A stretch of 64,000 bases of DNA from Nannocystis bainbridge (GCF_028368995.1 NZ_JAQNDL010000001.1:3648001-3712000); one strand, 5' to 3'; counted from the stretch's first letter, positions 1 through 59,622 are shown. Numbers and translations are program-made. The notes: generated by a model not told the origin, from the letters alone.

Positions 1-2626
1 GCGGGCCCTTGCCGAACAAGCTGCCGAGCAGATCGCCGGTCCGCTCACCCTTGCCGAAGGTCATCACCGACATGCCCGCCAGCGGCTGGCCGGTGCGCGA
101 GTCGAGCAGGACGCCGCGCAGCCCGGCCCACGGCTGCAGGTCGAGGACGAGCGCGGCGCGCTCGCCCGGCTTCAGCGCGAGCTCGTGCTCGACGCGGCCG
201 CTGTCGGCGACGGCGATCAGGCTGTACTCGCCGGGGTCGAGGTGGTCGATGCGGTGGCTGCCGGTCGCGCTGTCGACGTTCTCGCGCTCGCTGCGGGTGC
301 CCCCGCCCGGCTTGTGGGAGGTGACGTGCAGCTCCCAGCGCGGCACCGGCTGGCCCCCGGCGCGCGCGGTGACCGTCAGCTCGGCGAGCGAGACCGTCTG
401 CAGGCGCACGTCTGTCCCCGGGGACAGGCCGGTGACCTCGACGCGCGCGCTGCCGCGGAGGGCCTCGGCGCGCAGGGTGTAGGTCCGGCGGGCCAGGCCG
501 GTGAACTCGAAGCGGCCGTCCTCGCCCGACAGCGCCGGCTCGCCGCGCCCCTCGAACCCCGGGAACGCCTGCGACTCGGGCTCCTTCGGCGGCTCGGGCA
601 CGAGCCCGACCTTCTCCCCCGACCGGGCGGCCTCGGGCCGGTGGAATTGGGACTCGCCCGGGTCGCGCTGCTCCGGCGCGGCGGTGACCCATGCGTCGGC
701 CGTCGGCGCGCCGTCGGGCCCGAGCACCACCCCGCGCAGCACCCCGTCGCGCAGCTCGACCACCAGGTCGACGCCGTGCGTGACGACCGCGGCCGAGATG
801 GTCTTTCGAACAGGTTCGTACGACCTGTCCGCAGGGACATCCCAGCGGATCACGTTGCCCCCGCGGTCGAGCACCCGCAGCTCGTACTCGCCGCCCTCGA
901 GGCCGCGCGCGGCGTAGGTGCCGTCCTCGGCGATCGGGTGGCGGTCGCGGCGTTCGCCGTCGAACACCATCGACATGTTGCCCCGCTTCGACGTCACCGG
1001 CATCAGCTGCACGCTGCCGCCCTTGACCGGCGCGCCGCGGGCGTCGACCACCCGGCCGGTGACCGTCGCGCGCGGCTCGAGCGTCACCACCGCCCCGCGC
1101 AGCCCTTCGACGCCGACTTCGACGTCGAGCTGGCCACGGCTGCCATCAGGCGCCTCGGCGATCACCCGCAGCTTGCCCGGCTTGACCGGCCGCAGCGTGA
1201 ACTCCCCGCCGGCGTCGGCGCGGCTGCGGACCAGCACGTTGCCGAGGTTGGCGAGCACGGTCATGAAGCCCGGTTCGTCGTCGGCGAGGGTCAGCGAGAT
1301 CGCGGCCAGCGCCGGCGGCTCGACGCGCCCGCGCAGCTCGACCCCGCGGTCGAGCTCGACCAGCACGCCGGCGATGTCGGCGTCGACCACGGTGACCGTC
1401 GGCCCGCCGAGGATCTCCGGCAGCGCCTGCTCGGCCACCGAGCCGAGCATGTACGTGCCAGGCCGCACTCCGAGCACCTCGAAGTAGCCGTCGACGGCGC
1501 TCGGGCCGGTGGCCGGCCGCAGCGCGAACGGGTCCAGCGCCAGCGCGCCGACCATGACGCCGTCGAGCGCCTTGCGCGGGTCGTCCTTCGGGGCGACAAA
1601 GCCGGAGATCTTGAACGCCCGCTCGACGCGGACCTCGACCCCCGTGAGCGCCTCGCCGATGCCCAGCTCCACCTCCGCCGGCTCGCGCGAGGCGTGCCCG
1701 GACGCCACGGCCGACAGCTTGTGCGCGCCCGAGGCCAGCCCGCCGAGGCGGAACCGGCCGCGCGCGTCGCTGACCGCCGAGCCGCCGCCGAACCCGCCGA
1801 ACTCGCCGACGCTGACGAGCGCGCCCTCGACCGGGGCGTCGCCCGGGTCGGCGCGCACCGTGCCCTCGACCGACGCGGCCGGCACCAGCCGCAGGTCGAC
1901 CGAGCGCGGGCCGCCGGCGACGTCGACGCTCTCGCTGTCGCCGGTGTAGTCGGCGTGCCAGGCGGTGACCTGGTACACGCCATCGTCGACCTGCACCACG
2001 AACCGCCCCTCGCCGTCGCTGACCGCCGGGAACGAGGCGCGGCTGAACTGGATGACGTTGCCCTCGCCCCGGCGATCGACGCTGACGATCGCGCCCTCGA
2101 CCGGGCCGCCGCCGATGTCGCTCACCGTGCCGCGCAGGGCGTGCCCGCCAGCGACCAGCGCGGCGTCGAGGCCGGCGTGGGCGGTACCTGCCTGAAACGA
2201 CAGGTCCTTGCGGACATACGGCAGGTAGCCGTCGGCCGAGGCGCTGAGGATGTAGTGACCGGGCCGCACCAGCGGCACCGACCAATCACCCGAGGCGTCG
2301 GTGCGCGCGGTGATCGGCGCACCGGTATCACCGGACTCGACCGGCGCACCGAGACCTTTCGGCCGCAGCATCACCACCGCGCCGGCGAGGCCCCGCTTGC
2401 TGCGGGCGTCGATCACCCGCCCCGCGGCGGAGCAGGGCGAGACGTCGATCTCACCGCGAGCCCGCGCCGCGGTCCGCTCCTGGGTGATGGCAGCCGCCCG
2501 CGCGGCCCGGTCCACCTTCTCCTCGGGCTTCGCCGGCCCCGCCTCCGGGCGTCCGAGCGCCGCCCACACCGCGATCGCCAGCAACACCAGCGCGACCGCG
2601 ACGCCTCCCAAAAATTTGCGCGACAC
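1..2626 (-). CDS. Large membrane-anchored carboxypeptidase-regulatory-like (CarboxypepD_reg) repeat protein; runs off the left edge
   Basis: Not in the ORF track; translated by hand. Starts VSRKFLGGVAVALVLLAIAVW (TM), then repeated GxVxD.xGxPVxGAxV / DxxGxF beta-sandwich modules. Alternative in-frame ATG at 2671. Confidence 0.8.
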   Translation of the reverse strand, partial: MSRKFLGGVAVALVLLAIAVWAALGRPEAGPAKPEEKVDRAARAAAITQERTAARARGEIDVSPCSAAGRVIDARSKRGLAGAVVMLRPKGLGAPVESGDTGAPITARTDASGDWSVPLVRPGHYILSASADGYLPYVRKDLSFQAGTAHAGLDAALVAGGHALRGTVSDIGGGPVEGAIVSVDRRGEGNVIQFSRASFPAVSDGEGRFVVQVDDGVYQVTAWHADYTGDSESVDVAGGPRSVDLRLVPAASVEGTVRADPGDAPVEGALVSVGEFGGFGGGSAVSDARGRFRLGGLASGAHKLSAVASGHASREPAEVELGIGEALTGVEVRVERAFKISGFVAPKDDPRKALDGVMVGALALDPFALRPATGPSAVDGYFEVLGVRPGTYMLGSVAEQALPEILGGPTVTVVDADIAGVLVELDRGVELRGRVEPPALAAISLTLADDEPGFMTVLANLGNVLVRSRADAGGEFTLRPVKPGKLRVIAEAPDGSRGQLDVEVGVEGLRGAVVTLEPRATVTGRVVDARGAPVKGGSVQLMPVTSKRGNMSMVFDGERRDRHPIAEDGTYAARGLEGGEYELRVLDRGGNVIRWDVPADRSYEPVRKTISAAVVTHGVDLVVELRDGVLRGVVLGPDGAPTADAWVTAAPEQRDPGESQFHRPEAARSGEKVGLVPEPPKEPESQAFPGFEGRGEPALSGEDGRFEFTGLARRTYTLRAEALRGSARVEVTGLSPGTDVRLQTVSLAELTVTARAGGQPVPRWELHVTSHKPGGGTRSERENVDSATGSHRIDHLDPGEYSLIAVADSGRVEHELALKPGERAALVLDLQPWAGLRGVLLDSRTGQPLAGMSVMTFGKGERTGDLLGSLFGKGP

Positions 2627-2670
2627 CGGCCCAGTCTCGACCAGCCGACGCGCGAGCGCAAGCCTCAGCA

Positions 2671-2698
2671 TGTCCCTCAGGACATGCTCTTCGGGACA
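2671..2698. repeat. TGTC-N6-GACA palindrome array (2 units)
   Basis: tgtc-cctcag-gaca-tgct-cttcgg-gaca. Confidence 0.7.
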
Positions 2699-2803
2699 CC
2701 CTCAGGATTCACCGCGGTGACGATCACGGACCCGACGCCGCTGGCAACTCGACTTCGCCATCGCGCGTCTGGCACGACGCTGCGCGACTGCCGGCACGCG
2801 CTC

Positions 2804-4452: not shown

Positions 4453-4465
4453 GACCTGTTCATGA

Positions 4466-4535
4466 TGCCCCTTCGGACATGCCCCTTGTGACATGTCTTT
4501 TAAAACATGCCTGAAAGGGCATATTTTTTAGGGAT
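4466..4535. repeat. 14-bp-phased palindrome array (4-5 degenerate units) between convergent genes
   Basis: tgcc-ccttcg-gaca / tgcc-ccttgt-gaca / tgtc-ttttaa-aaca / tgcc-tgaaag-ggca. Confidence 0.8.
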
Positions 4536-5445
4536 ATCGCAGCGGCCCGTCGCCGCGCTCGCGCGCGCGCAGGAACAGGCGGGCCAGCTCGGGGTGGCGC
4601 TGAAATTCGTCGCTGGCCGTGCGGCCGCGGTGGGCGCCGTGAAAGCCGCGGGTCTGCGTCTCGATCCGGAACGCCGGGCGAGCCGGGCGCAGCACCTGGC
4701 CGCTGTCGACCCCGAGGCTGACGATCGCCCGCGGCCGCCCGACAGTCAGCACCTCGGCCAGCACGCGCTGAAAGTTGGCAGCGGTGGTGTCGGTGTCGAA
4801 GTAACGGCCGGTCAGCGCCTCGGCGGCGGTGGCCGCCAGCGGCAGCACCGCGCTCGCCAGCGTCAGGCGGCGGCCGTTTCCGGCGTAGCGGTGCAGCGTG
4901 ACGGCGCCGAGCGACTCGCGCTCGCCCGGCACCAGGCCCGCGCTCGCCAGCCGGACCGTGACGTCGAGGCAGTCGGCCCCGTCGACGAACGCCGCCGTGG
5001 GGTTGTCGGCGACCCCGGCGAACGGGCCGAAGCCGGTGAGCACGAGCATCGCATCGCCTGTCCCTGAGGACAGCTCGCGCACCGCGGTGGCGATCACCCG
5101 CGCGCACTGCTGCAGGTTGTCGGCCCGCGGCAGCAGATGCCCCGCGGCGGCCGCCGAGGCGCCGGTGCAGCGGTCGGGCGGGACGTGGATGAAGCCGGTG
5201 AGCACGCCGGCGAGCCGCGAGTCGCCGGCCAGCGCGATCAGGTTGGCGAGCTGATCGGCGCAATAAAAGCTGCCGGGGTCGACACCGAGCTGCACGTCGG
5301 CCTCGGCGCCGGCGTCGGCGACGGCGATCGCCCGCAGCAGGTCGCGCTGGCCGACGTAGCGGTCGCCGCTGCGGATCGCGTGGTCGGCGACGCCCGCGGC
5401 CGCCTGCGGGGCGTAGTCACGGCCGTAGGCCTCGAGCGCGTCCAT
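4528..5445 (-). CDS. Circularly permuted pyroglutamyl-peptidase I (peptidase C15)-like protein
   Basis: DPGSFYC (Cys) and GFIHVP (His) motifs precede LTGFGPF...NPT, PRAIVSLG and FRIE (Glu), the reverse of canonical Pcp order. Confidence 0.75.
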   Translation of the reverse strand: MDALEAYGRDYAPQAAAGVADHAIRSGDRYVGQRDLLRAIAVADAGAEADVQLGVDPGSFYCADQLANLIALAGDSRLAGVLTGFIHVPPDRCTGASAAAAGHLLPRADNLQQCARVIATAVRELSSGTGDAMLVLTGFGPFAGVADNPTAAFVDGADCLDVTVRLASAGLVPGERESLGAVTLHRYAGNGRRLTLASAVLPLAATAAEALTGRYFDTDTTAANFQRVLAEVLTVGRPRAIVSLGVDSGQVLRPARPAFRIETQTRGFHGAHRGRTASDEFQRHPELARLFLRARERGDGPLRYP

Positions 5446-7595: not shown

Positions 7596-8953
<1,358 letters not shown>

Positions 8954-8957
<4 letters not shown>

Positions 8958-9880
8958 GCGGCCTCCGGCAGGCGCACGCAGAAGCAGGCGCCGCGCCCGT
9001 CGGGGCCGAGGCCGCCGCCGGGGACCAGCTCGAGCGCGCCGCCGTGGGCCTCGGCGATGCGCGCGGCGGTGGCGAGGCCGAGGCCGGTGCCGGTCTTCTT
9101 GGTGGTGAAGAACGGCTCGAACAGCCGCGCCGCGTGCTCGGGCGCGACGCCGGGGCCGTCGTCGCGCACCAGCAGCTCGACCGTCGGCCCGCGCCGGCGC
9201 ACCCGCAGCTCGATGCGCCCGTCGTCGCCGATCGCCTGGGCGGCGTTCAGCGCCAGGCCGTAGACCAACTGCGCCAGCAGGTCGGGGTCGCCGCGCAGCG
9301 CCGGCCCGTCGCCCTCGGCGGCGTCGAGCCGGCCGCGCTTCGGCCGCAAGGCGTCGCGCACCAGCGGCTCGACCGCGGTCACCAGCCCCGCGAGCTCGAC
9401 CTCCTCGCGCCGCGGCGCCAGCGGCCGCGCGTAGTCGAGCAGCGCGGTGACGACGGCGTTGAGACGATCGACCTCCTCGACGATGAAGCGCGCGGCCTGA
9501 TGATTATCTGTCCCCGGGGACATGTCCTCGAGGACAAGCGAGGCCGACGAGCGGATCACCCCGAGCGGGTTGCGGACCTCGTGGGCGACGCCGGCGGCGA
9601 GGCGACCGATCGCCGCCAGCTTCTCGCTGTGGGCCGCGCGCCGGTGGCTGGCCGCGAGCGCGGCGGCGCTGGCCCGCAGCCGGTCACGGGCGTCGAGCAG
9701 CAGGCCGATCGCGTAGCCGAAGCCGGCGAAGGTGAGGGCGAAGAAGCCGACCACCACCGGCGAGACTTCGACGCCGGCGAGCCCCAGCAGCAGGAAATCG
9801 AACAGGCCGGCCGCGAACCCGAGGGCGGCGCCGAACCAGGCGCGGCGCGTGGAAGGTGGCGAGGGCGGCGCTGGGGTCAC
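8954..9880 (-). CDS. Sensor histidine kinase with two TM helices and no extracytoplasmic domain
   Basis: H-box AHEVRNPL, N-box NAAQA, DDGPG, FFTTK, GTGLGL; ATGA overlap with the regulator; start estimated. Confidence 0.9.
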
Positions 9881-10578: not shown

Positions 10579-10597
10579 AGCGCCAGGTGGAGCGGAA

Positions 10598-10780
10598 AAC
10601 ATGTCCCGCGGGACAGGCCCGCGGGAGCCGCGAACTCCGCGCAGATCGCGGCTCGCCTAACATGTCCCCCGGGACAGCTAGGGCGAGCCGCGACCTCCCG
10701 GCATCGACCTGTTCTTCGCTACATCTCATCCGTCAGCCGCCAGAATCTATGGTCTTTCGAACATGTCTGTTAAGACATGC
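10598..10780. repeat. Three TGTC-N6-GACA sites; the first two lie in a ~61-bp-period direct repeat
   Basis: Sites at 10602, 10663 and 10764; aacatgtccc..gggacag...gagccgcga repeated. Confidence 0.75.
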
Positions 10781-10787
10781 ACGAAAA

Positions 10788-16281: not shown

Positions 16282-16312
16282 AGCGACCTCACCCCGCGCC
16301 GCAGCACTTTCA

Positions 16313-16372
16313 GACATGTCCTTTACAACATGCCCTGATCGCCATGTCCTTATCGACATGTCTGATCCGGCA
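16313..16372. repeat. 14-bp-phased palindrome array (4 units) downstream of nudC
   Basis: gaca-tgtc-ctttac-aaca-tgcc-ctgatc-gcca-tgtc-cttatc-gaca-tgtc-tgatcc-ggca. Confidence 0.85.
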
Positions 16373-17338: not shown

Positions 17339-17708
17339 CGTCAGAGTTCCTCCTGCGCCCGTCGGCGTGGGCGAGCGCGGCCGGGGCCTGGGCGGGGACG
17401 CGGGAGCATCGGCGGCGGGCAGCATGCCGCGTCCGTCCGCCCCGCGCCAGCGGCCCTGGCGACCGCCGCCACGCCAGGCCATGCACGCCACCGATCGGCC
17501 GCCCGCCTCGCCCCGCGGTGACCCCGCGAGCGTCCGCGCATTCACATCACATGTCTCTCGGGACATCTACCCAATCGCCGCCGCGAATCACGGTTGCGTC
17601 CCCGGATTAGGGGTTCCTCGCCCGCAGAGGTGTCGGCGAACGACCCCTGAACAAAAGACTAGCTGTGGCGCGCGGTATCGCGTACAAGGAGCGCGGAGAC
17701 ACCCCCTC

Positions 17709-21075: not shown

Positions 21076-21109
21076 TGCGACCTGTCCCGCGAGACAGGTC
21101 ACGCATCCT

Positions 21110-32120: not shown

Positions 32121-32123
32121 CGC

Positions 32124-32179
32124 TGTCCTTTACACCATGTCCCATCGCGCATGTCCCCGCGGACATACCCCAAGAGTCA
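32124..32179. repeat. 14-bp-phased palindrome array (3-4 units) between convergent genes
   Basis: tgtc at 32124, 32138 and 32152; gaca at 32162. Confidence 0.8.
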
Positions 32180-44604: not shown

Positions 44605-44614
44605 GCTGATCGCG

Positions 44615-44654
44615 ACGGCCCGCGGCGGCCCGATCGGGTCGCTACCGCGGGCCG
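44615..44654. terminator. GC-rich hairpin between convergent vgrG and LRR gene
   Basis: cggcccgcgg...cggcccg-atc-gggtcg...ccgcgggccg. Confidence 0.55.
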
Positions 44655-44671
44655 CGTTCACCCGGCCGGGC

Positions 44672-46276
44672 TCATTCGTCGCCGTCCTGTCGCTCGCTGC
44701 ACACGTCGGGCGCGCCGTGCCGCGTCAGCCAGGCGCACAGCGGCGCGGGATCGGCGAGTCGGCCGTCGCCGGGCCAGCCGTACCAGCGCAGGGTCTTGCC
44801 GTGGTGCAGGCTCACAGCGGCCAGCAGCCCGGCGTCGCGGTGGAGCTCGATCGTCAGGGCGCCGCAGCACATGCAAGAGGTGTCGCTGAGCGACTCGTCG
44901 AGGCGCAGCAGCGGCAACAGCTCGCGCACGGCGGCCGGGTCCTCGTGCACGAAGAAGACCCGCTCGAACGCGGGTCGCCGGTGACACACGCCGCCCGCGC
45001 GCACGACGATGCGGGTCGCGCAGGCGCCGACGTCGGCGAGCTTTTGATCCCAGCGATGATGCACGTCGACCGCGGGCGCGAGCGCGGCGAACTCCTCGAC
45101 GATGGCGTCGTCGAGGCCGGTCGCCATCACCCCGAGGGTGCGCAGCGCGGGCGGCGGCGGCATGGGCAGGCCGGCGATCGGGCTGCCATCGGCGAGCAGC
45201 TCGACGAGCTGCGGGTGACCGGCGAGCGGTGCCAGGCTGGTGACGCCGGTGCGGCCGACGTCGAGCCGGCGCAGCGCCGGCAGGCCGGGGACAAATCCGA
45301 GGTCGGTGAGCTGGCGGCGCCCCGACAGATCGAGGACGCGCAGGCGGGTGAGGTCGCGCAGCCGTTCGAGGTCGTGGACGGGCAGCGAGGCGTCGATCCG
45401 GAGGTGCTCGAGCGTTGCGAGCCGCGCGAGGTCGGCGGCGTCGACCCAGCTCGGCCCGCCTGAGGCGATCTGGGTGACATCGAGGTGGAGGTATCGCAGC
45501 TGCCCCAGGTCCGCGAGATCCGCGAGCACCAGCGGCCCGTCCGCTGTGATCTCGCCGCGCAACAGGCCGAGGAAGTCGCCGAGAGCGACGCCGAGGCGCA
45601 GCCCGTGGAGGCGGGGCGGGAGCCGTAAATTCGGGGCGTGCTGGCCGTCGGCGAGCGTGTAGTCGAGCACCAGCCCCGCGCCGTCGAGTCGCGCGAGCGC
45701 GGCGGCAACGTCGTCGCTCCATGTCCCAAGGGACAGGCCGCGGAGCTGGCGGAGCGTCGCCGTCGGCCGGCCCGGCAGGTCCTCGGCCTGGAGGTGGACG
45801 AGGTGCCGCGCGCCGCCGTCGTACGCCAGCTCGAGGGCGTCGGGGTGGGCGCTGACGGTGAAGTAACTGTAGAGCCCGGGCTGCCCGAGCACCATGCTGG
45901 CGCTGCCCCGGGCGACGGGTTCGTCCGGCGCGAACAGCGGAGACCGCGAGTCGCTGCGAAGGTCGAGGTGAATGATGTCACCCGCTCGCGGGAGGTCGCC
46001 GCCGGCGAGCGAGGTGATGCGAGGATCGACGGACGCGCCGTCGAGCTCGAAGCGGTAGCCGGAGTCGACGGGGGCCGGCTGCTTGCAGCGGTAAAGGAGC
46101 GCGCGCGGCGGGTCGAACGACATCGCGAGCCCGGGCTCGACGTCGGCCGCATCGTGCGGCGGGTCGGTGGGGTCGAGGACGACCTGTCCCAAAGGACCGG
46201 CGATGGCACGCCCAGGGTCCGGGGTGCAGGCGAGCAGCACCGCGAGACCGCCGACGAGCGCGCGCGCACGTCCCAT
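44672..46276 (-). CDS. Leucine-rich-repeat lipoprotein
   Basis: LLAC lipobox; internalin-like LxxLxxLxxL repeats; Cys-containing C-terminal domain (CMCCG). Confidence 0.78.
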   Translation of the reverse strand: MGRARALVGGLAVLLACTPDPGRAIAGPLGQVVLDPTDPPHDAADVEPGLAMSFDPPRALLYRCKQPAPVDSGYRFELDGASVDPRITSLAGGDLPRAGDIIHLDLRSDSRSPLFAPDEPVARGSASMVLGQPGLYSYFTVSAHPDALELAYDGGARHLVHLQAEDLPGRPTATLRQLRGLSLGTWSDDVAAALARLDGAGLVLDYTLADGQHAPNLRLPPRLHGLRLGVALGDFLGLLRGEITADGPLVLADLADLGQLRYLHLDVTQIASGGPSWVDAADLARLATLEHLRIDASLPVHDLERLRDLTRLRVLDLSGRRQLTDLGFVPGLPALRRLDVGRTGVTSLAPLAGHPQLVELLADGSPIAGLPMPPPPALRTLGVMATGLDDAIVEEFAALAPAVDVHHRWDQKLADVGACATRIVVRAGGVCHRRPAFERVFFVHEDPAAVRELLPLLRLDESLSDTSCMCCGALTIELHRDAGLLAAVSLHHGKTLRWYGWPGDGRLADPAPLCAWLTRHGAPDVCSERQDGDE

Positions 46277-46486
46277 GTCGCGAGGGTACACGCGAGCGCC
46301 GCGACCCGGTGGGCGAATTACGGGCCCAGGCGCACGCGCGCAGCGATGCGTCTGGCCGAGGCCCCCGCGGAGGATGATCCGCGCCCTCCTGTCGAGCGGG
46401 CTCGGCGGGCGCCAGGTCGCCACGCGACGAGCCTCGCGGCGCCGGTCCGGCTGCTTGTCCGGCGAAGATTGCCTACGATGCCGGCC

Positions 46487-47269: not shown

Positions 47270-47295
47270 GCCGTCGCCGCTCATGCGTCTTTAAG

Positions 47296-47351
47296 GACAT
47301 GTTCTAATCGACATGTCCCAAACGATATGTCCAAATCGACATATCCTCATG
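47296..47351. repeat. 14-bp-phased palindrome array (4 units)
   Basis: gacatgtt-ctaatc / gacatgtc-ccaaac / gatatgtc-caaatc / gacatatc-ctcatg. Confidence 0.85.
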
Positions 47352-47485
47352 AACGAGTGACTTCGGCCCGCTCGTCCTGAAGCGCGAGCGGCCGGGTTGC
47401 GAAACGTACCGGTCTTCCGTACGACCGCGTCGCGCCAGCCCTGCGCGCCGTACCTCGCGCCGCGAATTCGAGTAAGCTCCGCCGC

Positions 47486-48004: not shown

Positions 48005-48074
48005 CCTCACCGAGGGTGAGCCGCGCCGCGGTCCGCTCGGGTCGTCGTTCGCGCGGTAGAGACCGGCTCCCCGA

Positions 48075-48320
48075 GCGGACCGCCGACGTCGAGGTCTCAT
48101 GCATGTCCTCGAGGACATGCCCTTCAGGACCTGTCCTCTTCGCCATTCGACGTCACTCCTCGTTCACGCGGTTCGCGCGGCGCCCCGACCCGCGAACCGA
48201 GCAGACCGCGGACCACCGACGACGAGGTCGATATATGTCCCCAAGGACATGCCCTTCAAGACCTGTCCTCTTCGCCATTCGACGTCACTCCTCGTTCACG
48301 CGGTAGTGCGGCACCCCGAC
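48075..48320. repeat. Direct duplication (~115 bp, ~132-bp period) containing the mvaS 3' end and a palindrome array
   Basis: 48075-48189 versus 48208-48320; shared gacctgtcctcttcgccattcgacgtcactcctcgttcacgcggt. Confidence 0.9.
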
Positions 48321-49763
48321 GTCCTGCCAGCTCTTGTCGTAGCGCACGCCACGACCCGCGATCGCAAACGGCCGCGGCGCATGCAGCTCGCGCACCGGGG
48401 CGCGGCGCTCGTGCAGCGCCTCGTAGTCCTCGCGGCAGACATCGATCGCCCCGGCCAGCGCACCCGCCAGGTCGCTGCGCCCCGCCGCCTCGCGCCAGCC
48501 CGGCGTCACGCGGCCGCGCCACACCTCGGCCGCGTCGCCGCTGCCGTAACCGATCAGCGTCACGGCGGCGCCCTCCCACGCCAGCCCGCGCGCGTGCGCG
48601 TCGGCGAAGGCCGCGGCGATCCACGCCGGCAGCGACGCCGTGTAGAGGTTGCCGAGCTGCCTCACCAGGGTGCGACCGGGCTGCGTCGCCGCCAGCACGC
48701 GCGCGAACGCCGGCTCGCCCTGGACGTGGCGCGCGACCGCCTGGGTGCGCGCGAGCGGATCGAACTCCCCCCCCTGCGCGCGCACACCGTCCCGCGCATG
48801 GACATCGGCGGCCAGCTCGGCGATCAGCGCGTCGAAGCTCACGTCGGCGGCGAGGCACGCGGCGGCCAGCGCCTCGCGATCACCGGCGCGGACGCAGGCC
48901 CACACCCACGCCGCGCCGAGGGCCGCGACCGGCATGCGATCGTACGGCCGGTGCAGCAGCAGCGCCGCGGGCTCGGCCAGCAGCGCCCGGGGATCGCCGC
49001 CGCCGCGCGCGTAGGCCGAATCGAGCGCGCGCACCACCGCCTCGACGTAGCAGACCGTCGAGTACTTGCCGTTGAACACCGGGAAGTCGCGCTCGCCGCG
49101 GCAGCCGTCCGGGTACTCGCGCATGAAGTGGCGCGCGACCGGCTTGCGAAAGTCCCAGCCGCGCTCGTCCGACGAGCTGCCCGCGGCCCGCAGGTCGAGC
49201 GCGAGCAGCCGCGCCCGCGGCTCGACCAGCATCGCCACCGCGCCCGCGCCCTGGGTCGGCTCGCCCGAGCTGCCGCGCTCGTACTGGGCGATGTCGGCGG
49301 CCACCACGATCGCCACCCGCTCGGCCCCGTCGGTCTGCACGTAGCGCAGCGCCGCCTTGAGCGCATACATCCCGCCGAGACAGGCGTGCTTGACCTCCGG
49401 CACCTCGACATCGCGCGGCAGCGGCGCCCGCCCCTCGCGGCGCAGCGCGTCGTCGACCATGCCGCGCACGATCACCGCGCCGACCGCGTTGTCGACGCTC
49501 GACTCGGTGCCGAGCGCGAGCATGCCGACCCGCGCAGGATCGACGTCGTGCTGCCGCAAGAGCCGCAGCACCGCCGCCGCCGCCATCGTATAGACGTCCT
49601 CGTCGGGCTGCGGCACGCGGAACGCGTCGCCCACCACCGCCGCCAGCTTGCCCGGATCGGCGCCCGTCCACTCGGCGAACGCGGCCAGCGGGACGCGCGG
49701 CCGCGGTACGTACAACGAGAGCCCCGAGAGGCCCGGATTCGCGGGTGCAAGGACATCGGACAT
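48285..49763 (-). CDS. mvaS: Hydroxymethylglutaryl-CoA synthase
   Basis: GTES, KHACLGG (catalytic Cys), GEPTQGAGAVAML, HRPY, GNLYTAS, GYGSG. Confidence 0.88.
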   Translation of the reverse strand: MSDVLAPANPGLSGLSLYVPRPRVPLAAFAEWTGADPGKLAAVVGDAFRVPQPDEDVYTMAAAAVLRLLRQHDVDPARVGMLALGTESSVDNAVGAVIVRGMVDDALRREGRAPLPRDVEVPEVKHACLGGMYALKAALRYVQTDGAERVAIVVAADIAQYERGSSGEPTQGAGAVAMLVEPRARLLALDLRAAGSSSDERGWDFRKPVARHFMREYPDGCRGERDFPVFNGKYSTVCYVEAVVRALDSAYARGGGDPRALLAEPAALLLHRPYDRMPVAALGAAWVWACVRAGDREALAAACLAADVSFDALIAELAADVHARDGVRAQGGEFDPLARTQAVARHVQGEPAFARVLAATQPGRTLVRQLGNLYTASLPAWIAAAFADAHARGLAWEGAAVTLIGYGSGDAAEVWRGRVTPGWREAAGRSDLAGALAGAIDVCREDYEALHERRAPVRELHAPRPFAIAGRGVRYDKSWQDVGVPHYRVNEE

Positions 49764-49889
49764 GGCGCCGACCCTACGCGAATCGCTCGCTCACCCGTGT
49801 GCGCCGCGCCACGGACCATGATTCGCGCGACTCACGACATTGCTCCCGAGGCGGGCGAAACCCCGCGCAGAGGCGGTCCACCCGGGCCC

Positions 49890-50290
49890 TCGCGCGTTCC
49901 TCGTGACTGCCGCGATTCACGGAGATGCGGCGATGACGCTCGTTCGCCTGTCATCTCGCGCTACCGTTGTTCGCGCGATCTTCGACGTGCCGCGATTTGC
50001 GGCGATGCGTTGATGACGCTCGTTCGCGCCTGCCATCACGCGCCACCGGTGTTCGCGCGATCTTCGACGTGCCGCGATTCGCGGCGATGCAGCGATGCAT
50101 TGCGCTCGCGCCGTCATCACGCGCTACCGATCTCCGCCCGATCTGCGGCGCTGCCGCGATTCGCTGCGATGCGGGATGATGCCCGCTCGCGCCCATCATC
50201 ACGCCCTACCGATCTCCGCGCGATCTTCGACGCAGCCGCTATTTGCTGCGATGCGGCGATGACGCCCGATCGCGTCCGCGATCAGGCGGC
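49890..50290. repeat. Non-coding ~82-bp tandem repeat (~4.6 copies) with palindromic core
   Basis: Anchor (t/a)gccgc(g/t)att at 49908, 49988, 50070, 50152, 50234; core gccgcgattcgcggc. Confidence 0.85.
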
Positions 50291-50456: not shown

Positions 50457-52340
50457 ATGCCCATTCGCAGCGCGCTCCCGACTTCCTTGGCCTTGCTGGT
50501 CGCCTGCGGCGACGCGGCCGTGACGACCACCGAGACCGGCACCGGCACCGACACCTCGAGCGGCACCACCGACGGCACTGACGCGACGACCGCGATCACC
50601 GGGACCACCGTCACGCCGACCACCGGCGAGCCGACGACCACCACCGGTGATACCGCCACGACCACCACCGGTGACTCGACCACCACCGAAGACACCGCCA
50701 CGACCACCGGCGAGCCGGTCGACACCACGACCACGACCTCGACCTCGACCGGCCCCGACACCACCACCGATCCGGGTGAGACCACCACCACCGGCGACCT
50801 GCCGCCGGACCTCGACGCGCTGCTGGTCGGCCTCGACGGCGGCGTGCGGCTCGACTGGCTCGGCGAGGGTGACGGCGGCATCGAGCACAGCACCTACTGG
50901 GCGCTCGTGAAGGGCAGCGCCGAGTACAACGCCCTGCCGCCGGCCGAGCAGAAGAAGGTCGACCTGATGAAGGCCAGCGTGCTGCACAGCGCGCAGCGGG
51001 TGCCCACCAGCCAGACCCCGGGAGTCGAGATCACCGGCGCGTTGACGATCGACGCGCGCACGCAGGAGATCGTGCTGGCAGTGCCGACCGACTACAACGG
51101 GCGGCTGGTGGTGCTCGGCACCCCGGGCACGCGCGACCAGTGGTCGAGCCATGGCGTGCTGCTCTCGTGGCTGGTGGCTCGCGGCTACGCGGTGGTCGTC
51201 GGCAACAAGGGCATGACCAATGGCGGCGTCGACGGCAACGCGACCATGCTCAACAAGCAGCACCCGTCGCAGCACTGGGGCGCCATGCTGATCGACCTCG
51301 GGCAGTGGGCCGGCGACCGCCTGACCGCCGCGCATGGTGAAGCGCCCACGGCGATCTACGCCGCCGGCCTGTCGAACGGCGCCTACCAGGTCCGCCGCGC
51401 GCTCGAGCTCGATCGCCTGCGCGTGCTGGAGGGCGAGGCTGCCGTGTTCGCCGGCGGACTCGACTGGGCCGGCGTCTACTGGCCCGACGCGCGCGTGCTC
51501 GACACCGACGCCGACGACACCGTCACGCCGGCCGAGCTGGCCGCCGGCGACCACCTCATCCGCACCAACGAGGCCGCCGCCATGACCATGCGCTACGCCT
51601 ACGATCCGCAGACCGAGACCACCCCCGCCAACTACGCCCAGATCCCGCCCTACCCGAACGCCCAGGCTGCCATGCAGGCCGGCGGCTTCGACCCGGCCTC
51701 GGCGCCGATCTGGGGCGCCTACAACACCGCCTTCGACTACCTCAAGGGCTTCGGCCTGCCGCAGTTCAAGGGCGTCGGCTACTACAACTTCACCGGCTAC
51801 GTGTTCCGCGCCGAGCTGATGGGCCACGACGCTACCGAGGCCGCCGCCTACTCCTGCTACACCGGCCCCAACGACGCGCCGCCGGCCATGTACGCCTGGC
51901 TCGCGCAGGCGCAGGACGCCGGCTTCACCGCCGAACACGTGACGTGGGCCCTCGCCAACGCGACCACCGGCGAGTTCTCGGTCCCGCTGATCAGCGTGCA
52001 CGGCGACGCCGACGGCCTCAACGCATTCGCCGTGCACGCGCAGAGCTACCGCGCCGCGGTGGCGGCCTTCGGCACCCCGTCGCAGCACCGCCTCTACGTC
52101 GTGTCGCACGGCGGTCACGTCGACGCGCACAGCGACGGCCTCGGCCTCGACTTCGATTTCGACGGCACGATCGGCGAGGAGGGCGCAGCCGACCGCTTCG
52201 TGTTGATGCAGCCCTACGCCGAGCGCGCCTTCCTCTACCTGGTCGACTGGGTCGAGAACCAGGTCCCCGCGCCGGCCGGCAAGACGCTGGCGACCGACCC
52301 GGCCAGCGACGTCCTCGACGCCGAGTCGCTGGCGTTCTGA
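50457..52340 (+). CDS. Lipoprotein alpha/beta hydrolase (tannase / 3HB-oligomer-hydrolase-like) with Thr-rich linker
   Basis: LVAC lipobox; YNGRLVV.G.PG, GLSNG, VHGDAD, GGHVD. Confidence 0.75.
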   Translation: MPIRSALPTSLALLVACGDAAVTTTETGTGTDTSSGTTDGTDATTAITGTTVTPTTGEPTTTTGDTATTTTGDSTTTEDTATTTGEPVDTTTTTSTSTGPDTTTDPGETTTTGDLPPDLDALLVGLDGGVRLDWLGEGDGGIEHSTYWALVKGSAEYNALPPAEQKKVDLMKASVLHSAQRVPTSQTPGVEITGALTIDARTQEIVLAVPTDYNGRLVVLGTPGTRDQWSSHGVLLSWLVARGYAVVVGNKGMTNGGVDGNATMLNKQHPSQHWGAMLIDLGQWAGDRLTAAHGEAPTAIYAAGLSNGAYQVRRALELDRLRVLEGEAAVFAGGLDWAGVYWPDARVLDTDADDTVTPAELAAGDHLIRTNEAAAMTMRYAYDPQTETTPANYAQIPPYPNAQAAMQAGGFDPASAPIWGAYNTAFDYLKGFGLPQFKGVGYYNFTGYVFRAELMGHDATEAAAYSCYTGPNDAPPAMYAWLAQAQDAGFTAEHVTWALANATTGEFSVPLISVHGDADGLNAFAVHAQSYRAAVAAFGTPSQHRLYVVSHGGHVDAHSDGLGLDFDFDGTIGEEGAADRFVLMQPYAERAFLYLVDWVENQVPAPAGKTLATDPASDVLDAESLAF

Positions 52341-52440
52341 CAGCAATCTCGCAGCAGCTCGAGCCGCGCTCCGAGCGAGCATCTGCTTCGCCTCGTCCCC
52401 GCCGAAGAGGCGGCAGCCAACGAGACGACTGTCGAGGCCG

Positions 52441-52740
52441 CCCTCGACGAGGCGACCCTCGACGAGGCGACCCTCGACGAGGCGACCCTCGACGAGGCGG
52501 CTCTCGGCGAGGCGACCCTCGACGAGGCGACCCTCGACGAGGCGACCCTCGACGAGGCGACCCTCGACGAGGCGACTCTCGACGAGGCGACCCTCGACGA
52601 GGCGCCCCTCGACAAGACGGCCCTCGACAAGGCGGCCCTCGACGAGGCGACCCTCGACGAGGCGGTCCCCGACGAGGCGACCCTCGACGAGGCGACCCTC
52701 GACGAGGCGACCCTCGACGAGTTGACCCTCGACGAGGCGG
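52441..52740. repeat. 15-bp VNTR, 20 copies (ccctcgacgaggcga)
   Basis: Direct count; each unit contains the palindrome cctcg-a-cgagg. Confidence 0.97.
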
Positions 52741-52959
52741 CCGTCGACTCGCAGCGAGCCCCACGAAACACGCCGTGACGCGCGCAGCACGAAGCTGCGG
52801 CCCCCACAGGCTCCGAGCAGCCTGCGCTCTGCGAGGCGCCCGCTCTCCCGCTCGATCGCGCGGAGGCGCCTCGCGTCGTCATGATGCTGCGTAGCGTGAG
52901 TCACTGCCAGCGGCACAGGCATCGGCGCGCGTCGCAGCATGTTTCCGCCGGGTTCGAAA

Positions 52960-54303
52960 TCAGGGGCAGCTCACCGCCCCCGGCACCTTCGCCGGGTCGG
53001 CGTACCACTTGCTGTCGCTGCCCTGGTACAGCGGGAACGCCGTCGACATGCCGTACTTGGCGAACAGCGAGGTATACGTCGCGTCCGCCACGCCGAAGCC
53101 GTGCGGGTAGCTGGTGAAGCGCGACAGGTGCCCGGTGATCGTAGCCGTCACCGCCTGCACGTACGGCGTCGACGGCGTGCACGGAGCCTCGCCAGTGTCG
53201 CCACTGCCGGTGTCACCATTCCCGGTCTCGCCGCTGCCCGTGTCATCGCCGCCGGTCTCGCCGCCGGTCTCGCTGCCGGTGTCACCATTCCCGGTCTCAC
53301 CGTCCCCGGTCTCACCGGTCCCGGTCTCGCCGTTCCCGCCGCAGTCGGCGCAGATCCGGCGATTGTGCGTACTGAAGAAATCAGCGAGGTACCACGCGTA
53401 GTTGACGTGCTTCGGCGACACGTACGACTTGTCGGCCCCGGCGCCGCTGCCGGCCGGCCACGCGTGGGCCAGGCCCGTCGCGCGGATCTGCGACACCCGC
53501 GGCCCCTCGGCGTCGGCCCACAAGAGCCCCGTCCCGGCCGGCTGATAGCCCTCGAGGTCGGCCACGCTGAAGCCGCCCGCCGAGGACGCCCCGTACAGCT
53601 GCGCCATCACGGCCGCGTTGAGGTCGGCGTAGCCCTGCGCCACCACGTAGTCGCCGGTCCCCGCCAGCACCGACGTCAGCTGGGTCTGGAGCGCCCCCGC
53701 GTTCGACCCGGCCAGGCTCGTGCACAGCGACTTGGCCGCCTGCTGCGTCGTCGACACCTTGCCGATCTGCGACGAGCTGGTGCCGATCGTCGGGCCGGCG
53801 TCGATCCCCACCCCCGCGAACACGTCGGGCGCCACGCAGCCCATCACCATCGCCATGCCGCCGCCCGAAGACAGCCCGGCCACGTAGACCTGGGCCGGGT
53901 CGACATCGAGCGCCGCGTCGGCCTTGAGGTTGGCCGCCAGTTGCAGCAGCGCCCCCGCGTGGCCCTGCGTGCGCGAGTGATTGCCGCCGAAGTAATCCCA
54001 ACAGCCCAGCAGCACCCCGCCGTTCGGCGCGCTCGGGACCGCCACCACCATCCCGTACGCCTCGGCCGCGCTGGCCCAGTTGCCGAGGTCGCGGAACACC
54101 GTCGCCGACTGTGAGCACCCGTGCAGCGCGATCAGCAGGCCGCGGCCCTCGCCGACCACCCCCGCGGTCGCCGGCGTGTACACGTGGGTCGTCATCCCGG
54201 CGACGCTGCGCGAGGTCCATACCCCATTCGCGGCCGCGGGCGTCGGGCCCGCGAGCATACCGACGATAAGGGCGGTGACGAAGATCGGTGCGAATCGCTG
54301 CAT
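52960..54303 (-). CDS. Secreted PHB-depolymerase-family esterase
   Basis: Signal peptide, ALHGCSQ, CWDYF, GLSSGG lipase box, HAWP; GETG-repeat linker and small C-terminal domain. Confidence 0.85.
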   Translation of the reverse strand: MQRFAPIFVTALIVGMLAGPTPAAANGVWTSRSVAGMTTHVYTPATAGVVGEGRGLLIALHGCSQSATVFRDLGNWASAAEAYGMVVAVPSAPNGGVLLGCWDYFGGNHSRTQGHAGALLQLAANLKADAALDVDPAQVYVAGLSSGGGMAMVMGCVAPDVFAGVGIDAGPTIGTSSSQIGKVSTTQQAAKSLCTSLAGSNAGALQTQLTSVLAGTGDYVVAQGYADLNAAVMAQLYGASSAGGFSVADLEGYQPAGTGLLWADAEGPRVSQIRATGLAHAWPAGSGAGADKSYVSPKHVNYAWYLADFFSTHNRRICADCGGNGETGTGETGDGETGNGDTGSETGGETGGDDTGSGETGNGDTGSGDTGEAPCTPSTPYVQAVTATITGHLSRFTSYPHGFGVADATYTSLFAKYGMSTAFPLYQGSDSKWYADPAKVPGAVSCP

Positions 54304-54325
54304 GGTCGTGTCCTTCGCTGTGGCG

Positions 54326-56364: not shown

Positions 56365-56498
56365 GCTGGGCGGCAGCATGCCCCGGACTTTGCTGCGCTG
56401 CAACATAGATTCCTTTAAATGGGCGGATTCCTGAGGCTGTCGAGCGGGGGGCATGTTGCGGCGCAGCAAATACTTCTGCGTGTGCAGGCGGGGCGCGG

Positions 56499-58641: not shown

Positions 58642-59076
58642 ACGACCGCATTGTCCTCCTGCGCGAGGGTGCGGGCAAATAACGAGCGCGCCGCCTCTAA
58701 CCGGGTCTGCCCGCCGCGTGCGAGTCCGCCGATGCCCACCTCCGAGACTGCGGCGCCTCGTCCGCGGTCCGACCTCCGCCCCGCGGGTCCACCGATGTCG
58801 GTCGGCGGAACTTGCGCCACTCGCGTTTTCGCGCCGTGGCTTTCAGGCCAGGCCGCATTCTCGACTCTGGGGAGTGCCATGATTTGGCGAGTGCCAGGAT
58901 TGGCGCGGTACGCCGAGAATGATGTTACTCGACGTACTCCGTTCGACAGCCGCAACCATCGCCATGCGGGTGTCGAGGGTCGGCGTTCGCTGCGAGATCG
59001 AAGTCGCGAGTTCGTGGAGCATCCAGGCGCCGATCATCCGCACAGCTCCCGATCGTGCGCCCACGCAGCTCGCCGA

Positions 59077-59589
59077 TCACCCGGGCTCGCGGATCCACGC
59101 TCGTACGGCCGCGTCGTAAGCAGCCTGCTTCTGCTCGAGCAGCGCCAGCGCGTCCGCGAGGCTGTCGCGGCACTGCTCCTGATAGGCCTCCGCGTTCAGG
59201 CTCATCAGCGCGGCGCGGCAGGCGTCGCCGACGACGATCGCCACGGGCGAGTGGATCCTGGCGCCGGCGTGCCAGCGCCCCAGCCCGAAGATCCACTCCA
59301 TCTCGTCGCCCCACGAGTACGACAGCTCGCGCAGGTCGACGACGAGGCCGCTCGCGCTCCAGGCGGCGAGCGCCATCTTCACGACGGCCGTGATGTAGAG
59401 GGCGTCCGGCTGCCCCTGCGAGCCAGAGCGGTAGGCCCCGCGGAACCGGACGATCACGAACTCCCGGCCCGAGCGCGCCCCGTCGTCGGGCACGAGGACC
59501 TCGCTCTCGAGCGCGCTCAGGTCGGTGAGCCGGACCTCTCGCAGCGCCAAGCCGTCCAGCACGACGGACCTCATCGGCTCGCTCCGCAT
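59077..59589 (-). CDS. Hypothetical protein
   Basis: Globular-looking ORF (G.YR.GS.G..DA, VDLREL.Y.WGDE), weakly STAS-like. Confidence 0.65.
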   Translation of the reverse strand: MRSEPMRSVVLDGLALREVRLTDLSALESEVLVPDDGARSGREFVIVRFRGAYRSGSQGQPDALYITAVVKMALAAWSASGLVVDLRELSYSWGDEMEWIFGLGRWHAGARIHSPVAIVVGDACRAALMSLNAEAYQEQCRDSLADALALLEQKQAAYDAAVRAWIREPG

Positions 59590-59594
59590 GATGC

Positions 59595-59622
59595 TGTCCC
59601 CCAGGACATGTCCGGAGAGACC
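59595..59622. repeat. TGTC-N6-GACA array (2 units)
   Basis: tgtc-ccccag-gaca-tgtc-cggaga-gacc. Confidence 0.75.

Follow-up and report, generated by a model that had tools for sequence, protein, structure and literature searches.

A phased 14-bp palindrome at gene ends in Nannocystis, a candidate site for a dimeric DNA-binding protein

Results

Units and arrays in the window

The window, i.e., the whole stretch of 64,000 nt of DNA from a soil-dwelling Nannocystis myxobacterium that was analysed, contains 19 exact copies of the inverted pair TGTC-N6-GACA. The first-pass annotation of this DNA had listed these 19 copies, and its coordinates proved exact, with no others in the window. It had also described units abutting head-to-tail every 14 bp. 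Tandem Repeats Finder recovered 14-bp periods at 4465-4495, 9509-9536, 16313-16362 and 47296-47346, and an array tracer found further arrays at 32124-32179, 48104-48145, 48236-48277, 2671-2698 and 59595-59622. Gene positions throughout are those of our own simple gene caller, by which seven copies (413, 826, 5059, 8732, 9509, 9523 and 45722) are intragenic, as annotated before. Fractions of species refer to four other Nannocystis species. The sites are as follows.

413..426, single unit, exact match; inside the minus-strand gene of a CarboxypepD_reg repeat protein (Pfam) running from beyond the window start to 2611; TGTC/GACA kept in 4/4 species
826..839, single unit; inside the same CarboxypepD_reg gene; core kept in 4/4 species, spacer differs (cgcagg or cgaagg)
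2671..2698, 2-unit array; intergenic region 2612-2803; orthologous arrays in 4/4 species, same phase, different spacers
4466..4521, degenerate 4-unit array; fills the convergent intergenic region 4453-4527; arrays adjoin the same gene end in 4/4 species
5059..5072, single unit; inside the minus-strand gene 4528-5445, which has no Pfam hit; core kept in 4/4 species, flanks and spacer vary (cctgag, ccttcg, tcttcg)
8732..8745, single unit; inside the minus-strand sigma-54 activator gene 7596-8957; identical in 4/4 species
9509..9536, two abutting exact units; in the HisKA domain of the minus-strand histidine kinase gene 8954-9880, encoding LVLEDMSPGT
10602..10777, three separate units at 10602, 10663 and 10764, exact matches; convergent intergenic region 10579-10787; 10663 caps a longer hairpin
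16303..16372, 5-unit array; just before the stop of the minus-strand NUDIX gene 16388-17338; 4/4 species have arrays at this gene end; RNA fold z -4.0
17552..17565, single unit, exact match; divergent intergenic region 17339-17708; unit at the orthologous position in 4/4 species
21083..21096, single unit, exact match; midway along a 34-bp convergent gap, capping a longer hairpin
32124..32179, 4-unit array; fills the convergent intergenic region 32121-32176 and adjoins a TetR gene; arrays at the same place in all 3 anchorable species of 4
45722..45735, single unit, exact match; inside the minus-strand LRR protein gene 44672-46192
47286..47355, 5-unit array; starts 17 bp past the stop of the short-chain dehydrogenase gene 46478-47269; RNA fold z -5.5
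48104..48145, 3-unit array; belongs to the first copy of a tandem duplication of 132 bp
48236..48277, 3-unit array; belongs to the second copy of the 132-bp duplication and stops 8 bp short of the stop codon of the minus-strand HMG-CoA-synthase-like gene 48285-49715
59595..59622, 2-unit array, from exact match and array tracing; divergent intergenic, 33 bp upstream of the minus-strand gene 59077-59562

The double unit at 9509-9536 shows no indel relative to its orthologues, and 5/6 other genomes have one exact unit. These five genomes also keep the rare codons CTT and ACA, which are used in this kinase gene and which the annotation had held to be forced by the motif. The region 10579-10787 has 2-8 kb of extra DNA in three other species, and in the fourth no right-hand anchor was found. 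At the orthologous position of 17552, the unit is an exact TGTC-N6-GACA in two species and has a degenerate right half-site (ggcc for GACA) in two. The unit at 21083 is present in two and absent in two of the four other species, which indicates gain or loss. Other species also have arrays downstream of the dehydrogenase orthologue, at a position that differs from that of 47286-47355. The four regions compared yielded no orthologous block for 45722, and the four species compared no orthologous anchors for 59595-59622.

Abundance and fixed spacing of the inverted pair

The genome-wide logo gives the full consensus M-TGTCY-N4-RGACA-K, a 14-bp palindrome whose flanks show M/K only, with no conserved tetranucleotide or GTAG-type tag. 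The 19 exact copies in the window compare with an expected 0.82 (mean of 100 dinucleotide-preserving shuffles, maximum 4), confirming the over-representation first noted by eye, and the effect is far stronger genome-wide: the 11-Mb Nannocystis genome holds 3663 copies of TGTC-N6-GACA versus 29-155 for each other spacing from N0 to N15. Copies lie on all five contigs at a mean density of 16.6 per 50 kb. On rereading the window copies, the first spacer base was again a pyrimidine in 19/19 and the last a purine in 17/19, while the spacer takes 854 distinct forms genome-wide.

After masking of the units, the lone half-site is not enriched (O/E 1.0-1.1; 1.05-1.12 for ATGTCC, CTGTCC, GGACAT and GGACAG), and partnerless GACATGTC is at background (71/2237), whereas isolated TGTC-N6-GACA is above background (318). 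The functional unit is thus the inverted pair, and these statistics support a motif whose two half-sites would be read together at a single spacing, the way a dimer reads. They also bear on molecular drive without a cellular role, through biased uptake and recombination, mismatch repair or gene conversion, as proposed for the uptake signals USS/DUS and for HIP1: the half-site alone is unenriched here, whereas uptake signals are single asymmetric words.

Array phasing

Arrays consist of 2-8 units abutting head-to-tail with a period of exactly 14 bp, abutting pairs being found 1548 times at 14 bp versus once at 13 bp and five times at 15 bp. The rigid N6 spacing and exact phasing point to a protein of fixed geometry, since free hairpins would tolerate other loops and gaps. 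Molecular drive leaves the 14-bp phasing and the arrays of 5-6 units unexplained, and T at positions 4 and 5, the most frequent variant within arrays, resembles erosion of the motif more than repair in its favour.

The slight excess of 5-unit (n=308) and 6-unit (n=211) arrays relative to 4-unit arrays (n=296), a copy number in Nannocystis 10-20 times that of two sister genera (g2 and g4), and the gain or loss of a unit in some gaps might all suit a decayed MITE-like element (about 70-84 bp) that spread in a burst in the ancestor of Nannocystis. We regard such an origin as very improbable, as array positions are orthologous across species, no internal sequence is conserved among the many spacer forms, neighbouring spacers are unrelated, and half-sites are conserved far above the spacer, which neutral decay cannot yield. 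Terminal repeats were not seen either, nor, in an unsystematic inspection, were target duplications, and the intragenic units of genus g4 are isolated and form no arrays. Adjacent spacers are identical in 1.2% of cases versus 0.4% for random pairs. Orthologous intergenic arrays retain their place and phase with differing spacers, which, together with the unlike neighbouring spacers, indicates that the arrays are maintained and were not recently amplified.

Placement at gene 3' ends and folding

Among 1330 convergent gaps, 59% carry a unit and 48% an array, while 20% of co-directional gaps carry an array and only 4/368 divergent gaps shorter than 150 bp are occupied. Per kb, coding sequence carries 0.14 copies, divergent gaps 0.46, co-directional gaps 1.21 and convergent gaps 2.98. 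Phased arrays favour the 3' ends of genes, not promoters, and do so chromosome-wide, as the window alone had led the annotation to propose.

Thousands of copies at transcription-unit ends constitute the habitat of REP/BIME elements, short lineage-specific palindromes of Enterobacteria and Pseudomonas that are RAYT-associated, number hundreds to thousands and cluster at 3' ends and between convergent genes; this comparison corrects the one made earlier with other systems. The units might accordingly be hairpins of this kind, active as RNA stem-loops in 3'-end protection or termination or as single-stranded DNA, recognised by a hairpin-specific protein and spreading or persisting at gene ends, with the intragenic copies as side products. 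Besides the clustered 3' intergenic habitat, folding lends this explanation some weight. RNA folding of arrays beats that of shuffles in 6/8 window examples (z -2.4 to -5.5; hairpins of 8-11 bp), sense-strand G.U-compatible variants are slightly favoured in co-directional gaps (463:379, 363:307, 470:412), and longer hairpins are capped by a few isolated units, 11% of the convergent isolated units extending by at least 4 bp. Loops and arrays showed no polarity relative to transcription, but a palindromic stem is identical on both strands and the absent strand bias is compatible with an RNA or single-strand hairpin role.

We nevertheless consider a REP/BIME-like hairpin role less likely than a protein-bound duplex site. 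The stem of the unit is only 5-6 bp in a genome of 72% GC, the loop is fixed at 4, and the stem is not extended in most isolated units. Changes at mirror positions are almost independent of each other: Watson-Crick pairs are in weak excess at 3/12 (356 vs 318 expected), which taken alone suits a hairpin, but there is no covariation at 4/11 (423 vs 413), and spacer pairs match expectation. This argues against a selected stem, as such a stem would covary. The Y1 (RAYT) transposase PF01797 had no match in the window's genome (90% complete), with 6/14 control genomes matched, and the logo has no GTAG-type tag. Moreover, about one third of the copies (1301/3663) are intragenic and conserved at synonymous sites; these cannot serve as 3' hairpins, a point in favour of selection on the DNA itself. 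As a class, REP/BIME elements are strictly extragenic imperfect palindromes of ~20-40 nt with a tetranucleotide tag, to which a partly intragenic, tagless 14-bp unit with a free 4-6 nt centre and a zero-gap single register does not belong.

The units do not have the form of intrinsic (Rho-independent) terminators, in which a sense-strand T-run follows a G+C-rich hairpin: downstream T enrichment was absent in 1207 oriented copies, and a terminator scan of 44000-50000 gave 2 sites vs 1.4 expected, neither at an array.

Selection on copies inside genes

The 1301 copies in coding sequences compare with 89-115 in ten synonymous-codon shuffles (13-fold above this null) and 44-52 in five codon-order shuffles. 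In five related Nannocystis genomes (about 64-95 kb), identity over 209 copy-by-species pairs, which are not independent, was 0.937 for the core, defined as the eight bases TGTC and GACA, 0.782 for the spacer and 0.761 for the flanks. Core bases at third codon positions were kept in 72/72 cases versus 544/672 in the flanks. These results support selection on the motif as DNA, since neither base composition nor codon usage accounts for it. The selected site postulated earlier thus stands up to the codon-aware null and to synonymous-site conservation, and it did not turn out to be a known MITE end.

The same conservation could also stem from a drive by biased conversion instead of function. Copies within genes and at gene ends, conserved between species, depleted from accessory islands and rarer in genes of highest coding score are likewise found for USS/DUS and HIP1, which counts in favour of molecular drive. 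Within genes, motif density drops from 0.279 to 0.033 per kb with rising coding score, which we used as an expression proxy on the assumption that it is one; the drop is also what would be expected if bound sites were costly in busy genes. The repair gene Vsr (PF03852), however, is absent from the window's genome, from 4/5 other genomes of the genus that were searched (present in one) and from all 7 genomes of the two sister genera. Taken with the unenriched half-site and the phasing, this makes molecular drive without a cellular role improbable.

Distribution and search for a reader protein

Accessory DNA is poor in the motif, and dips in density coincide with accessory DNA and not with one chromosome domain. 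The motif is limited to Nannocystis and the two sister genera, and no comparable palindrome was present in samples of four other genera. The annotation had not recognised it as described in myxobacteria, and our literature search likewise found no published description of the palindrome.

No candidate binding protein was identified in the genome. The 13 HTH_Crp_2 (CRP-family) loci had no promoter-proximal copy on a rough reading of locus coordinates, and the 214 start-proximal copies gave no lead to a reader. The PadR operator consensus is ATGT-N8-ACAT; PadR (PF03551) had 0 matches in the window's genome, with controls matched 14/14, which speaks against a PadR operator.

Discussion

Comparison with known systems

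The role comparisons made in the first-pass annotation held in part. The likeness to HIP1 is borne out by the conserved intragenic copies, a feature shared with uptake signals. That to matS/MatP, the Noc sites (NBS) and the SlmA sites (SBS) is not, as these are tens of domain-confined or domain-excluded sites versus thousands of copies on five contigs here. Of its overall interpretation, selection, a dimer-like fixed pair and chromosome-wide 3'-end arrays stand, the polymerising protein is a putative one, and the matS/Noc/SlmA role falls away.

HIP1 (GCGATCGC) of cyanobacteria is an iterated palindrome that occurs inside and outside coding DNA and persists in orthologues despite codon preference, and the present motif shares its over-representation in coding sequence beyond codon usage and its orthologue conservation. 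HIP1 is, however, a contiguous 8-mer without arrays or 3'-end preference, whereas the motif here is bipartite and phased. HIP1 has also been linked to methyltransferases and short-patch repair, and the Vsr link finds no parallel in the window's genome. The DUS of Neisseria and the USS of Pasteurellaceae occur about once every one to few kb, both within genes and, in the form of inverted pairs, behind them, are shared within clades and are poor in newly acquired DNA. They differ in being single asymmetric 9-12-mers without phased arrays, whereas only the N6 inverted pair is enriched here.

The nearest model for the reading of the arrays is offered by the met-boxes of MetJ, the heptads of omega protein and the ParR/TubR centromeres, where short symmetric units lie head-to-tail in register, with one dimer on each unit and contacts between the dimers; these differ in being few loci (promoters or plasmid centromeres) with periods of 7-20 bp and other sequences. 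In the same phylum, sequence-reading nucleoid proteins exist: CdbA, a ribbon-helix-helix protein of Myxococcus xanthus, is reported to have >550 genic and intergenic sites with little effect on transcription (PMC7156744, PMC10313047). Its motif is a direct repeat with 4 bp separation, one helical turn apart (PMC7156744), whereas here the two halves are inverted and the period is 14 bp. A further difference is that all Myxococcales are said to have CdbA, and the palindrome occurs in three genera only. CRP/FNR operators, including that of M. xanthus MrpC (about 1600 sites, PMC4320627; motif TGTYN8RAC), share the inverted 4-N6-4 core geometry and usually come with an autoregulatory site, but the MrpC motif is two bases wider and its sites are at promoters.

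Proposed reading of the motif

The motif is abundant, symmetric, rigidly spaced and phased; it lies at 3' ends, its half-sites are under purifying selection, and it is confined to one clade and depleted from accessory DNA. From these observations we propose, at a probability of roughly 0.45, that this lineage-specific iterated palindrome is the selected site of a putative dimeric DNA-binding protein, one that would assemble on the arrays where transcription units end. We infer that the reader would most likely be a dimeric, sequence-specific protein acting on double-stranded DNA. With the Nannocystis units stacked at 14 bp, neighbouring dimers would have a CA|TG junction in common, which might allow cooperative binding. 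The arrays would then most likely be protein-bound boundary elements at transcription-unit ends, possibly acting as a roadblock or termination aid or, alternatively, as a barrier or sink for the supercoils built up behind RNA polymerase. BIMEs, likewise, are bound by proteins (gyrase, IHF) where transcription-driven supercoils collect. The single intragenic copies may be lower-order sites of the same protein, tolerated mainly in genes of lowest coding score.

In its most specific form, a dedicated protein of Nannocystis and the two sister genera would polymerise on the arrays as a terminator, insulator or supercoil barrier at about half of the convergent pairs, and the intragenic singles would mark long-resident versus newly acquired DNA. 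We offer this version as a tentative one that may well prove wrong. To our knowledge, no bacterial counterpart of such a chromosome-wide, sequence-coded boundary system has been described.

Implications

Textbook terminators are mostly lacking from very G+C-rich bacteria, and the way in which such bacteria end their transcription units is an old question. One phased DNA word, present in roughly every second convergent gap of an 11-Mb genome and under purifying selection even at silent positions, makes this question directly testable. An array of 42-70 bp is an ideal bait for the reader protein, and the arrays predict where topoisomerase activity, polymerase roadblocks or the 3' ends of RNAs should map. 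In practical terms, the motif can serve as a marker separating resident from recently acquired DNA in Nannocystis, a genus mined for natural-product gene clusters, and it deserves attention in the design of expression constructs for such hosts.

Abundance and consensus of the palindrome

The window (C1:3648001-3712000 in a five-contig assembly of 11.05 Mb; G+C content 70-75%) contains 19 copies of the 14-bp palindrome TGTC-N6-GACA, whereas 100 dinucleotide-preserving shuffles have 0.82 on average and never more than 4. The first-pass annotation had listed 19 copies found by eye, and all its coordinates are exact matches that make up the window total. It had also taken the palindrome for a chromosome-wide site, which the genome-wide count bears out, as the motif occurs 3663 times with a spacer of N6 compared to 29-155 times at each other spacing from N0 to N15. 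The reversed arrangement is found genome-wide as GACA-N0-TGTC (n = 2237) and GACA-N14-TGTC (n = 1305), the signature of head-to-tail units. Isolated TGTC-N6-GACA pairs (n = 318) are well above background, while GACATGTC lacking a partner on either side is at background level (71 of 2237), and thus the elementary unit of the motif is the inverted pair rather than the junction. The sequence logo gives a wider motif, M-TGTCY-N4-RGACA-K, with A (0.58) or C (0.37) at position 0, C (0.75) at position 5, G (0.72) at position 10 and T (0.59) or G (0.35) at position 15, and with four almost unconstrained central bases. No Rfam family was found at gathering score across the whole window.

Phased arrays

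The 14-bp head-to-tail period noticed in the window is a genome-wide property. Distances between units, computed with at most one mismatch per unit, peak at 14 bp (1548 pairs), 28 bp (820), 42 bp (558), 56 bp (318) and 70 bp (146), with a single off-register pair at 13 bp and five at 15 bp. Array tracing started at seeds matching 7 or more of the 8 half-site (core) bases and went on in 14-bp steps as long as 5 or more of the 8 matched. Of the 9501 loci obtained, 5878 were single units; the arrays had two (1907 loci), three (798), four (296), five (308), six (211), seven (69), eight (25) or more units (9). With five control palindromes of equal composition, there were 68-127 doublets and never more than 4 triplets. 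Chance as the origin of the motif is ruled out by the shuffles, the counts at other spacings and these control palindromes. Middle units picked solely on the quality of both neighbors (n = 820) have the consensus TG-Y-C-C-N4-G-G-R-C-A, and their TG and CA are retained at 0.89-0.94, which makes the CA-TG junction the best-kept part of the array. The spacers of units within one array are unrelated.

Location at the ends of transcription units

Genes were defined without external annotation, as long open reading frames scored with a self-trained codon table (7997 genes, 83.5% coding); of 20 proteins tested in the window, 15 were called in agreement with Pfam.

Palindrome copies and arrays by type of DNA
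Convergent gaps (n = 1330): 2.98 copies per kb; unit in 59%; array of two or more in 48%
Co-directional gaps (n = 3877): 1.21 copies per kb; unit in 32%; array of two or more in 20%
Divergent gaps (n = 1443): 0.46 copies per kb; unit in 27%; array of two or more in 12%
Coding DNA: 0.14 copies per kb

In co-directional gaps, 70% of the copies are closer to the upstream stop codon, and an exact unit or array is present in only 4 of the 368 divergent gaps shorter than 150 bp. The occupancy of the gap types identifies the arrays as a feature of transcription-unit ends, where the first-pass annotation had placed them. The window also holds tandem repeats of other kinds.

Other tandem repeats in the window
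52433-52748: 15-bp repeat, 21 copies, 90% matches, between genes 50493-52340 and 52960-54303; occupies a convergent gap, the usual place of palindrome arrays, and is found nowhere else in the genome
49907-50278: 82-bp repeat, 4.6 copies, in a divergent gap; local only
61319-61668: 69-bp repeat, 5.1 copies, 93% matches, at a convergent gene end; local only
48074-48320: 132-bp tandem duplication, 1.9 copies, 87% matches, taking in a three-unit array and the last codons and stop of an HMG-CoA-synthase-like gene

Copies inside genes

Wholly within called genes there are 1301 copies, compared to 89-115 in ten within-gene synonymous-codon shuffles and only 44-52 in five shuffles of codon order, in agreement with the earlier claim that copies are retained in genes against codon bias. 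The excess is greatest in frame 1 (540 vs 12-23) and frame 0 (103 vs 1-5), the two that impose codons ending in A or T. Codon bias as the origin of these copies is ruled out by both kinds of shuffle, and misplaced gene borders are ruled out since the copies are evenly distributed along genes. Their density drops steadily as coding score rises, the lowest decile having 0.279 per kb and the highest 0.033. A histidine kinase gene contains the double unit at 9509-9536 within its HisKA domain and shows no insertion there relative to six orthologs, and the rare codons CTT and ACA that form the double unit are retained in five of the six.

Conservation and selection

The window was compared with its orthologous 95-kb counterparts from four further genomes of the genus, in which the genes are collinear and 80-93% identical. 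The intragenic copies at 413, 826, 5059 and 8732 retain TGTC and GACA in all four species despite changes in spacer and flanks. Over the 209 copy-by-species pairs, i.e., all those within aligned blocks, identity in the core is 0.937, compared to 0.782 for spacer and 0.761 for flank positions, and all eight core bases are retained in 162 pairs. The proposed conservation at synonymous sites is likewise observed: in the intragenic copies of the window, third-codon positions of the core are retained in 72 of 72 cases vs 544 of 672 in the flanks (Fisher p ~8e-7, the pairs not being independent). The intergenic DNA around arrays is mostly unalignable between species. Nonetheless, in orthologous gaps the arrays recur beside the same gene end with unchanged phase, while their spacers differ (gaps 2612, 4453, 15955, 17339 and 32121); in gap 21076, three genomes have a unit and two have none. 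Conservation of the core and of third positions, together with the orthologous arrays, argues for maintained sites rather than recent amplification or neutral decay. Among the rival readings, molecular drive behind the palindrome seems quite improbable, and its origin in a decayed mobile element scarcely credible.

Three further loci stood out in the alignments.

Conserved or rearranged loci in the window
17339-17708: block aacccctgaacaaaagactagc plus the following stretch, almost invariant in five species; the divergent gap, which lies upstream of a GST gene, has otherwise diverged
2612-2670: gcgcGACAc...cagtctcgaccagc...gcgcaag, conserved in five species, on the 5' side of gap 2612-2803, adjoining the start of a large CarboxypepD_reg gene, ahead of the array
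47486-48004: small DnaJ-domain gene with arrays on either side

The aacccctgaacaaaagactagc block, which matches no Rfam family, could represent either a promoter or a small RNA. In each of the four other Nannocystis genomes compared, the DnaJ-domain gene is inverted relative to its neighbors and 2-6 kb of extra DNA is present there, and from this locus the arrays may mark rearrangement breakpoints.

Taxonomic range and chromosomal distribution

Orthologs of one window gene in Nannocystis exedens, N. punicea, N. pusilla and Nannocystis sp. are 85-87% identical. The form TGTCC-N4-GGACA was counted in 51 genomes of the order, each at least 85% complete, including two sister genera of Nannocystis (g2 and g4).

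TGTCC-N4-GGACA in genomes of the order
Genome of the window: 1987
Four large genomes of the genus: 1550-2090 per genome
Fragmentary 6.6-Mb genome of the genus: 333
Sister genus g2: 87-169 per genome
Sister genus g4: 67-161 per genome
Genus g22: 6-20 per genome
All other genera: 0-11 per genome
Reversed-pattern control: 0-10 per genome

A 100-kb sample of g4 contains ten copies, all isolated units, six of them within open reading frames and with mostly C...G flanks. From this, the dispersed single site looks ancestral and the arrays look like an elaboration of Nannocystis. In a de novo scan for 4-Nn-4 palindromes, the motif tops the list for the window and takes second place in g4. The same scan of 39-100 kb samples revealed no comparable palindrome, or "dialect" of the motif, in g22 and three other genera (g26, g27 and g28). 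A 100-kb sample from g2 (a relative of 60.5% G+C) has a different outlier, TGTA-N2-TACA, found 12 times vs 0.36 at other spacings. The exact double unit was absent from the viral contigs searched.

Along the chromosome, copies per 50-kb bin are over-dispersed, with a mean of 16.6 and a variance of 59.5. Stretches of 100-200 kb are poor in the motif (1-6 copies per 50-kb bin) and slightly lower in G+C, and have genes of ordinary size with a low coding fraction from our own caller. The three listed below span 50-200 kb and have 1-4 copies per 50 kb, with lower G+C and a low coding score.

Motif-poor stretches
C1:1,100,000-1,300,000
C1:500,000-600,000
C2:750,000-800,000

Two 20-kb pieces, one from the first stretch and one from that on C2, are mostly without orthologs in five other genomes of the genus, apart from a 10-kb segment of one piece at 94% identity in a single genome; the window, unlike these pieces, is collinear in all four genomes compared. 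Newly acquired DNA is thus motif-poor, and such stretches are probably recently acquired islands.

Duplex site or hairpin

The units could act as REP-like hairpins in RNA or as duplex sites read by a dimer. RNA folding is better than in shuffles for 6 of 8 window arrays (z -2.4 to -5.5), and in co-directional gaps the variants that allow G.U pairing in the sense RNA slightly exceed their mirror images (463:379, 363:307 and 470:412), as a hairpin would have it. Spacing and phasing are rigid, however, which favors a duplex site, and the half-site alone is unenriched once units are masked (O/E 1.0-1.1). Pairing at spacer positions is no more frequent than base frequencies predict, and mirror positions of degenerate units are near-independent (pairs 3/12, 356 vs 318 expected; 4/11, 423 vs 413). 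Longer stems around isolated units are rare, and no T-run follows the units. Intragenic copies are conserved, yet a stem of 5-6 bp can mean little in a message of 72% G+C. Oriented loops and array polarity were looked for and not seen, the arrays having neither left-right polarity nor orientation relative to transcription; strand symmetry as such is not evidence against a hairpin, because a palindromic stem is identical on both strands. Overall, we consider a hairpin role rather unlikely, and a duplex site read by a dimer is favored over it by about two to one.

Candidate reader proteins and known systems

Genes for RAYT, Vsr and PadR are absent from the genome of the window, and none of its 13 CRP-family loci has a promoter-proximal copy. 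An autoregulated gene for the hypothesized reader was sought among the 214 copies within 120 bp of gene starts, which gave no pattern and no lead. Small genes beside the window copies (Pfam matches DUF2834, MarR, GST, NUDIX and TM2) include no obvious candidate. Three identical start-proximal matches belong to a duplicated GST-like gene near contig ends and not to a mobile element. The three gene copies, with identical upstream DNA, lie at C2:960-1709, C5:711337-712086 and C5:715820-716569; two of them are near contig ends, and this is probably a large repeat, either duplicated or collapsed, at which the assembly breaks.

Among known systems, REP/BIME elements match the motif in habitat and clustering, but three of their defining features fail here, namely the RAYT gene, the restriction to extragenic DNA and the sequence tag. 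HIP1 and uptake signals share conserved copies within genes; the present motif differs in being bipartite, with an unenriched half-site and without Vsr. MetJ, omega and ParR bind cooperative operator arrays, and by analogy these offer the best model for how a palindrome array could be read. Two myxobacterial proteins with many sites, MrpC (TGTYN8RAC; PMC4320627) and CdbA (a direct repeat whose halves lie 4 bp apart; PMC7156744), have a site geometry unlike that of this motif. The first-pass annotation had not recognized the palindrome as described, and literature searches, supplements aside, found neither this motif nor any iterated palindrome in Nannocystis; in PMC3462791, both half-site words are present solely in primer tables.

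We conclude that the motif is a real, strongly selected and clade-specific iterated palindrome with a new architecture. With a probability of roughly 0.45, and with some weight left for explanations beyond the rivals named above, it would serve in Nannocystis as the docking site for a putative DNA-binding dimer, one that would assemble along the arrays at the ends of transcription units.
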